From Escherichia coli (GTDB lineage Bacteria > Pseudomonadota > Gammaproteobacteria > Enterobacterales > Enterobacteriaceae), in assembly GCF_003334405.1 (NCBI RefSeq), contig NZ_QOWM01000001.1: a stretch of 64,000 nucleotides of DNA; one strand, 5' to 3'. Both the position numbers and the translations under genes were made by a program. Shown here piece by piece: positions 18,243-42,981 of this stretch (positions are counted from its first letter, which is position 1; each line of letters opens with the position of its first letter). Under the pieces are notes generated by a model, which did not search any database, had not been told where the DNA came from, and saw only the letters and a program-made list of their open reading frames with translations.

Positions 18243-18327
18243 ATAAAAAAACCTGCTGGTGAGGCAGGTTCTTTTATTTACTATTTTCAGGCCTAACACC
18301 ACAGCCTGTGCAACATCGTGTTCCAAC
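18243..18327 (-). ncRNA. predicted OrzO/OrzP-type antitoxin sRNA (copy 1)
   Basis: Minus-strand -10 TATAAT (18339..18334) 17 nt from TTGCAA -35 (18357..18362); predicted TSS near 18327; intrinsic terminator ACCTGC/GCAGGT stem (18251-18269) followed by U-run on minus strand; 5' 20 nt complementary (19/20) to toxin leader 18474-18493. Ends are predictions. Confidence 0.5.
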
Positions 18328-18565: not shown

Positions 18566-18655
18566 ATGGACACGCTGACACAAAAGTTAACCGTGCTCAT
18601 TGCTGTACTGGAGCTATTAGTAGCTCTGTTACAGTTGATTGATTTGTTGAAGTAA
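18566..18655 (+). CDS. zorO: ZorO/ZorP-family type I toxin, 29-aa hydrophobic peptide (copy 1)
   Basis: ATG 18566 with AAGGAG SD 6 nt upstream; translation MDTLTQKLTVLIAVLELLVALLQLIDLLK then TAA; matches remembered ZorO/ZorP family of E. coli O157:H7. Assignment of O versus P to the two copies is arbitrary. Confidence 0.78.
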   Translation: MDTLTQKLTVLIAVLELLVALLQLIDLLK

Positions 18656-18852: not shown

Positions 18853-18935
18853 ATAAAAAAACCTGCTGGTGAGGCAGGTTCTTTTATTTACTACAGTGAC
18901 GCTAACTTGCTGATTGTGCAACATTTCGTACCAAC
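18853..18935 (-). ncRNA. predicted OrzO/OrzP-type antitoxin sRNA (copy 2)
   Basis: Minus-strand -10 (18947..18942) 17 nt from TTGCAA (18965..18970); terminator stem 18861-18879 with U-run on minus strand; 5' region 18916-18935 matches leader 19082-19101 at 18/20. Confidence 0.5.
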
Positions 18936-19173: not shown

Positions 19174-19263
19174 ATGGACACGCTGACACAAAAGTTAATC
19201 GTGCTCATTGCCGTACTGGAGTTATTAGTGGCTCTGTTACGGTTGATTGATTTGTTGAAGTAA
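19174..19263 (+). CDS. zorP: ZorO/ZorP-family type I toxin, 29-aa peptide (copy 2)
   Basis: ATG 19174 with AAGGAG SD; translation MDTLTQKLIVLIAVLELLVALLRLIDLLK then TAA; differs from copy 1 at residues 9 and 23. O versus P naming is arbitrary. Confidence 0.78.
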   Translation: MDTLTQKLIVLIAVLELLVALLRLIDLLK

Positions 19264-41261: not shown

Positions 41262-41395
41262 CAACCAAACGACTCGGGGTGCCCTTCTGCGTGAAGGCTG
41301 AGAAATACCCGTATCACCTGATCTGGATAATGCCAGCGTAGGGAAGTCACGGACCACCAGGTCATTGCTTCTTCACGTTATGGCAGGAGCAAACT
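41262..41395 (+). promoter_or_regulatory. TPP (THI-box) riboswitch in thiM leader
   Basis: Leader contains ACGACTCGGGGTGCCCTTCTGCGTGAAGGCTGAGAAATACCCGTATCACCTGATCTGGATAATGCCAGCGTAGGGAAGTC, the classic thiM TPP aptamer, with SD GGCAGGAGC just before the ATG. Boundaries approximate. Confidence 0.85.
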
Positions 41396-42184
41396 ATGCA
41401 AGTCGACCTGCTGAGTTCCGCGCAATCTGCGCACACGTTACACCTTTTTCACCAACATTCCCCTCTTGTGCATTGCATGACCAACGATGTGGTGCAAACC
41501 TTTACTGCCAATACCTTGCTGGCGATCGGTGCATCGCCAGCGATGGTTATCGAAACCGAAGAGGCCAGTCAGTTTGCGGCTATCGCCAGTGCCTTGTTGA
41601 TTAACGTTGGCACACTGACGCAGCCACGCGCACAGGCGATGCGTGCTGCCGTTGAGCAAGCAAAAAGCTCTCAAACACCCTGGACGCTTGATCCAGTAGC
41701 GGTTGGTGCGCTCGATTATCGCCGCCATTTTTGTCATGAACTTTTATCTTTTAAACCGGCAGCGATACGTGGTAATGCTTCGGAAATCATGGCATTAGCT
41801 GGCGTTGCTAATGGTGGACGGGGAGTGGATACCACTGACGCCGCAGCTAACGCGATACCCGCTGCACAAACACTGGCACGGGAAACTGGCGCAATCGTCG
41901 TGGTCACTGGCGAGGTGGATTATGTTACCGATGGTCGTCGCACCGTTGGCATTCACGGCGGCGATCCGTTAATGGCCAAAGTGGTAGGAACTGGCTGTGC
42001 ATTATCGGCAGTTGTCGCTGCCTGCTGTGCGTTACCAGGCGATATGCTGGAAAATGTCGCATCTGCCTGTCACTGGATGAAACAAGCCGGAGAACGCGCA
42101 GTCGCCAGAAGCGAGGGGCCAGGCAGTTTTGTTCCACATTTCCTTGATGCGCTCTGGCAATTGACGCCGGAGGTGCAGGCATGA
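41396..42184 (+). CDS. thiM: hydroxyethylthiazole kinase
   Basis: 262 aa, [33 protein letters not shown]. Confidence 0.93.
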
Positions 42185-42981
42185 AACGAATTAACGCTCT
42201 GACGATTGCCGGTACTGATCCGAGTGGTGGTGCGGGGATTCAGGCCGATCTTAAAACCTTCTCGGCACTTGGCGCTTATGGTTGCTCAGTTATTACTGCT
42301 CTGGTGGCGCAAAACACCCGTGGCGTACAGTCGGTGTATCGCATTGAGCCTGATTTTGTCGCTGCCCAGCTCGATTCGGTGTTCAGCGATGTGCGAATCG
42401 ACACCACTAAAATCGGTATGTTGGCGGAAACCGATATTGTTGAAGCGGTGGCAGAACGGTTGCAACGTTATCAGATCCAAAACGTGGTACTCGACACCGT
42501 TATGCTGGCAAAAAGCGGCGACCCGCTGCTTTCACCTTCGGCGGTTGCTACGTTGCGCAGTCGATTATTGCCACAGGTTTCATTAATAACGCCAAACTTG
42601 CCCGAAGCTGCTGCCTTGCTCGACGCGCCACACGCGCGCACCGAACAGGAAATGCTGGAACAAGGGCGATCGCTGTTGGCGATGGGCTGTGGCGCAGTGC
42701 TAATGAAAGGTGGTCATCTGGATGATGAGCAAAGCCCGGACTGGCTGTTTACCCGCGAGGGTGAACAACGGTTTACCGCACCGCGCATTATGACCAAAAA
42801 CACCCACGGCACTGGTTGTACGCTCTCTGCGGCGTTGGCTGCACTACGCCCGCGCCATACAAACTGGGCTGACACCGTACAGGAGGCAAAAAGCTGGCTT
42901 TCATCAGCATTAGCCCAGGCCGACACGCTGGAAGTTGGTCACGGTATTGGTCCGGTTCACCACTTCCACGCCTGGTGGTGA
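42181..42981 (+). CDS. thiD: hydroxymethylpyrimidine/phosphomethylpyrimidine kinase
   Basis: 266 aa; ATGA overlap with thiM; PfkB-like kinase motifs. Confidence 0.93.

Follow-up and report, generated by a model that had tools for sequence, protein, structure and literature searches.

Positions 41262 to 41395 of the window (the whole stretch of 64,000 nucleotides of Escherichia coli DNA that was analyzed) correspond almost certainly to the thiM TPP riboswitch of E. coli, which acts in cis as an OFF switch within the 5′ leader, about 150 nucleotides long, of the thiMD mRNA; we put the probability of this assignment at about 0.97. The assignment is based on the match to the Rfam family RF00059, the presence of thiMD directly downstream, the identity with the K-12 sequence, and the computed alternative pairings of the leader. 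The interval is composed of the aptamer (41265-41361) and its expression platform (41362-41395), and ends one base before the ATG of thiM. The thiM riboswitch is among the best characterized, and serves as a model of how a ligand drives RNA folding, of Rho-coupled translational control, and of riboswitch targeting by antibacterial thiamine analogues. The element of the window is this already-known riboswitch, none of its features departs from the known one, and the value of the result lies only in the correct annotation. All features given below are on the + strand unless otherwise stated.

The 64-kb window was scanned with cmscan against all 4227 Rfam families. A single match to RF00059 (TPP) was found, at 41265-41361, with a score of 71.2 bits (E value of 5.1e-12) compared to a gathering score of 54.3 bits. 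The match is untruncated and spans the full model (positions 1 to 105 of 105), and the only gap in the alignment corresponds to the optional stem P3a, which is absent from the thiM aptamer. The two ligand-sensor motifs are intact and aligned to the consensus: the pyrimidine-sensor motif CUGAGA (41298-41303) in the P2/P3 arm, and ACCUGAUCUGGAUAAUGCCAGCG in the P4/P5 pyrophosphate-sensor arm (41317-41342), the whole being closed by P1 (41271-41274 with 41345-41348) in the RF00059 fold. Furthermore, in an identical E. coli genome, the corresponding bases bear the RefSeq feature “TPP riboswitch”. The preliminary description, which had recognized a TPP riboswitch at 41262-41395, had named a scan with the TPP covariance model as its check and the lack of a hit as what would count against it; the significant match obtained here upholds that identification.

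The aptamer lies on the sense strand in the 5′ leader of a thiamine salvage gene. Thirty-four nucleotides past its 3′ end begins thiM (41396-42184, start codon ATG at 41396-41398), an open reading frame encoding hydroxyethylthiazole kinase (TIGR00694, 338 bits for a cutoff of 256), which is followed by thiD (42181-42981), encoding the HMP/HMP-P kinase (TIGR00097, 363 bits for a cutoff of 205); RefSeq annotates both genes. The two frames overlap by 4 nucleotides (ATGA), and thiM and thiD are co-regulated as an operon. Upstream, and on the same strand as thiM, lies rcnR (40901-41173; NF011613, 197 bits). The Shine-Dalgarno (SD) sequence AGGAG is found at 41385-41389, and its core GGAG (41386-41389) is located 6 nucleotides before the ATG.

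Comparison with the thiM riboswitch of K-12 MG1655 shows that 41221-41410 is 100% identical, every base being the same from 41221 through codon 5 of thiM. The lone intergenic change, a G instead of a C, falls in the promoter spacer (41220), and the few substitutions in thiM start at codon 6. The neighbors are also the same in K-12, with rcnR upstream and thiM-thiD-yegX downstream, as are the nucleotides of the SD, anti-SD and anti-anti-SD. A 301-nucleotide query taken around the riboswitch moreover has counterparts of 100% identity in many chromosomes of E. coli; the RefSeq annotation of this region lists there rcnR, “riboswitch: TPP riboswitch” and thiM. Hence the window carries the very sequence used in the published experiments. 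For this K-12 sequence, TPP binding and crystal structures of the TPP-bound aptamer are reported (PMC1920254), and binding of TPP by the element of the window would be expected from the 100% identity. The early reading of the raw sequence, which had called the element canonical, had placed it ahead of thiMD, and had assigned the SD to the expression platform, directly 5′ of the ATG, thus holds on all these points; it had recognized the riboswitch and its SD-sequestering platform with accurate coordinates.

The published numbering could be transferred directly to the window. Nucleotide N in PMC1920254 corresponds to position 41260 + N, and only this offset reproduces G100/G101, GGAG at nucleotides 126-129, CUUC at 108-111 and GAAG at 83-86. 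The anti-anti-SD GAAG (nucleotides 83-86) is at 41343-41346 and overlaps the 3′ strand of P1. Between the aptamer and the anti-SD, a linker hairpin GACC-ACCA-GGUC (41352-41363) is seen in both computed folds; G100/G101 (41360-41361) are part of this hairpin, and their replacement by CC is reported to suppress genetic control but not TPP binding (PMC1920254). The anti-SD strand UUGCUUCUUCA extends from 41365 to 41375, with its core CUUC (nucleotides 108-111) at 41368-41371.

We then compared the folding of the leader with the aptamer locked or unconstrained. When the aptamer was locked in the Rfam consensus fold, the anti-SD 41365-41375 paired with the SD region (41381-41392), and the mean probability of the SD being unpaired was 0.01. 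In the unconstrained minimum free energy (MFE) fold, the anti-SD (41366-41373) paired instead with 41341-41349, which includes GAAG and the 3′ strand of P1, and the probability of the SD being unpaired rose to 0.31 in the leader. The SD is only partly open in the unconstrained ensemble (0.31 to 0.50). Because the anti-SD pairing covers the 3′ strand of P1, the aptamer cannot close as long as this pairing holds, and the two pairings of the anti-SD, with the SD (closed aptamer) or with the aptamer 3′ strand (open aptamer), are mutually exclusive. Published chemical probing showed that nucleotides 83-86 pair with nucleotides 108-111 without TPP, and that P8 sequesters nucleotides 126-129 with TPP (PMC1920254); the computed pairings of both states coincide nucleotide for nucleotide with this model. 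The plain MFE of 41262-41410 is not unusually stable (z score of −0.8), a value that was counted neither for nor against the riboswitch since the MFE is not expected to single out leaders with two alternative folds.

According to this scheme, at low TPP the anti-SD strand (41365-41375) would be engaged in pairing by the 3′ half of the aptamer, at GAAG (41343-41346) and its neighbors. The anti-SD being occupied, the SD (41386-41389) and the AUG would be available, and ThiM and ThiD would be made. Binding of TPP would close the aptamer through P1 (41271-41274/41345-41348) and capture the GAAG bases; the freed anti-SD would then pair with the SD region 41381-41392, and initiation of translation would be blocked. 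TPP-dependent repression of translation in vivo has been reported for the identical K-12 leader (PMC5499598), and may be expected for the leader of the window.

A secondary control by Rho would be superimposed on this repression. In the published work, repression of translation exposes a rut site of thiM around position 200, Rho stops at positions 231, 237 and 262, and the level of thiM mRNA drops with TPP in a Rho-dependent manner (PMC5499598). When mapped on the window, the probed rut region (nucleotides 201-210) falls at about 41445-41456 and the termination sites at about 41475-41508. A composition scan in 25-nucleotide windows revealed at 41427-41470, inside thiM, a C-rich (32-40%) and G-poor (4-16%) stretch, which coincides with the mapped rut site. 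Untranslated thiM would thus expose a rut site at about 41427-41470, Rho would terminate about 80 to 110 nucleotides into thiM, and the thiMD mRNA would fall; this sequence of events, and with it the Rho dependence of thiM in the window, comes from publications on the K-12 leader, whose sequence is the same. The Rho-dependent decrease of thiM mRNA would also fit a direct control of Rho by the riboswitch, of the ribB/mgtA type, in which a rut site of the leader would become accessible in the ligand-bound fold itself, translation being controlled only secondarily. However, the elements required for the Rho effect reside in codons 20-34 of thiM (41453-41497), i.e., within the open reading frame (PMC5499598), which is numbered such that codons 9-40 correspond to nucleotides 174-271 from the transcription start site. 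Moreover, the C-rich stretch lies downstream of the ATG and outside the expression platform. We consider direct control of Rho very improbable, and sequestration of the SD, with Rho acting on the untranslated messenger, the preferred mechanism.

Even less probable is an attenuation of transcription in which TPP would act through an intrinsic terminator and antiterminator instead of through the SD. Intrinsic-terminator attenuation is common in Firmicutes and is used by many TPP riboswitches elsewhere, and the class of the aptamer is the same. The terminator-type TPP riboswitches of Gram-positive bacteria belong to the same aptamer family but carry an intrinsic terminator/antiterminator, which is absent at thiM: no terminator-like stem followed by a U-run was detected in 41100-41500 on either strand, and the platform ends as an SD/anti-SD helix right at the start codon. 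The mechanism was rejected on these grounds, and the expression platform being devoid of an intrinsic terminator, control is exerted at the initiation of translation. The E. coli riboswitches of thiC (thiCEFSGH) and thiB/tbpA share the aptamer class and the ligand with thiM and exert a translational OFF control coupled to Rho (PMC5499598). They are found at other loci, outside the window, and differ from thiM in their expression platforms and in the genes that they regulate.

The conservation of the element was analyzed within E. coli and beyond. Every complete E. coli genome but one (5425 of 5426) has a match to the leader region. A DNA-pattern scan of species-representative genomes yielded 120 stretches with the aptamer core, 76 of which had a ThiM homolog 55-63 nucleotides or more downstream. 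An alignment was made with MAFFT from 48 distinct thiM leaders of other Enterobacterales genera together with that of the window (49 sequences). The ligand-sensor motifs are invariant in these 49 leaders, which is in part a consequence of how the search pattern was built. A chance or decayed match devoid of regulatory role, or a true product encoded by one of the two open reading frames that a mechanical search places over the leader (68 amino acids on the − strand, 41159-41365; 79 amino acids on the + strand, 41365-41604), is scarcely conceivable given the full-length match at an E value of 5e-12, the presence of the leader in all but one of the E. coli genomes, and the aptamer core that is invariant in the leaders of other genera. 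Both frames were rejected as genes; neither is annotated in RefSeq, and the one on the + strand lies out of frame inside thiM.

In the same alignment, the cores of the SD/anti-SD and of the anti-SD/GAAG helices were both kept in all 49 thiM leaders, and one pair, 41366:41391, was compensatory, with U-A in 8 sequences and C-G in 16. Covariation of the columns was weak for both states, with shuffled controls exceeded only on cell-based measures, and a register slid by +1 scored equal or higher; in most pairs no variation is seen at all. The search pattern had itself imposed the aptamer core, and the stems that do vary, those of P3 and of the linker, are misaligned by MAFFT. The support for the switch helices is core retention and one compensatory pair, rather than statistical covariation; no more than this is claimed, given how little these columns change and given the core imposed by the search. 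When the leaders were folded one by one, a clean computed switch was obtained in only about half of the orthologous leaders. These are mainly of the Escherichia/Kluyvera type, with the SD unpaired at 0.38-0.66 in the free state versus 0.00 in the locked state, while the Citrobacter-, Cedecea- and Enterobacter-type leaders, whose platforms have diverged, gave ambiguous folding under this simple locked/free test.

The 5′ end of the leader was also analyzed. A consensus scan of 41100-41500 found only one promoter-like site, the sigma-70-like TTTACA-17 nucleotides-TACCAT at 41211-41239 (9 of 12 matches). From this site and from the published numbering, which counts from the transcription start site (PMC5499598), we infer that transcription starts at about 41245-41247, 6 to 8 nucleotides past the −10 hexamer, and that the AUG of thiM is at about nucleotides 150-152. 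The transcribed leader probably begins about 15 nucleotides 5′ of 41262, at roughly 41245-41247. Upstream of the aptamer, the RNA is predicted to fold into a 5′-terminal hairpin, UGCGAU/AUCGCA (41247-41263), of 6 base pairs with a 5-nucleotide loop UUAUC. Its free energy is −6.3 kcal/mol (z score of −4.9), and none of 200 shuffled sequences folded as well. The hairpin, which is mostly outside the interval 41262-41395, might stabilize the 5′ end of the mRNA.

This upstream region varies among strains. In O157:H7 ATCC 43888, the place of the K-12-type spacer 41172-41261 is taken by other DNA, at least 2.3 kb long (L124, 3729-6000), which carries small open reading frames and a helix-turn-helix-like protein, and homology resumes exactly at 41262. 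The replaced segment takes in the promoter-like site, the deduced transcription start site, and most of the 5′ hairpin. In strain 503440 (L125), homology also resumes at 41262, behind unrelated DNA with a recombinase and an HNH endonuclease; the left junction and rcnR lie outside the stretch examined for this strain. The breakpoint in both strains is located 3 nucleotides before the start of the Rfam aptamer, and thiMD must be transcribed there from a different promoter. Furthermore, among the 5425 E. coli genomes with a match, 697 align over less than 80% of the 301-nucleotide query, and these may carry spacer variants of the same kind. In an ExPEC strain of E. coli (NZ_CM172609.1; L123, 2602 onward), an element with a partial integrase and an IS3-family transposase is inserted inside the 3′ part of the aptamer, at about 41341, and RefSeq annotates no riboswitch at the interrupted site; the thiM riboswitch of this strain seems to have been disrupted naturally. 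A tentative and rather doubtful reading of these variants would be that the rcnR-thiM spacer is a recurrent hotspot of recombination or integration, that a sizeable minority of E. coli runs the same riboswitch from a different promoter, and that the hairpin acts as a recombination target or as a stabilizer of the mRNA 5′ end.

Variation was also noticed in the neighborhood of rcnR. The rcnA open reading frame (39935-40780, − strand, 846 bp) encodes a loop very rich in histidine, HEYDYEHHHHHHDHEHHQDHEHHHDHGHHHHHEHGE. The gene is annotated with 825 bp in K-12 and 2012C-4221 and with 864 bp in O157:H7, and these different lengths suggest that the histidine-repeat tract expands and contracts among strains.

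The Rfam scan revealed other RNA elements in the window. Two matches to the OrzO-P antitoxin sRNA (RF02083, 99.9 and 88.8 bits) are arranged in tandem on the − strand, at 18245-18320 and 18855-18928. Each of them adjoins, on the opposite strand, an open reading frame (18566-18655 and 19174-19263, + strand) encoding a hydrophobic peptide of 29 amino acids, MDTLTQKL[T/I]VLIAVLELLVALL[Q/R]LIDLLK. The tandem loci fit the known zorO-orzO/zorP-orzP type I toxin-antitoxin pair; K-12 is not known to carry this locus. Finally, the known Hfq-dependent sRNA CyaR (RyeE) was found at 57606-57691 on the − strand, with a match of 100.7 bits to the full-length RF00112 model.
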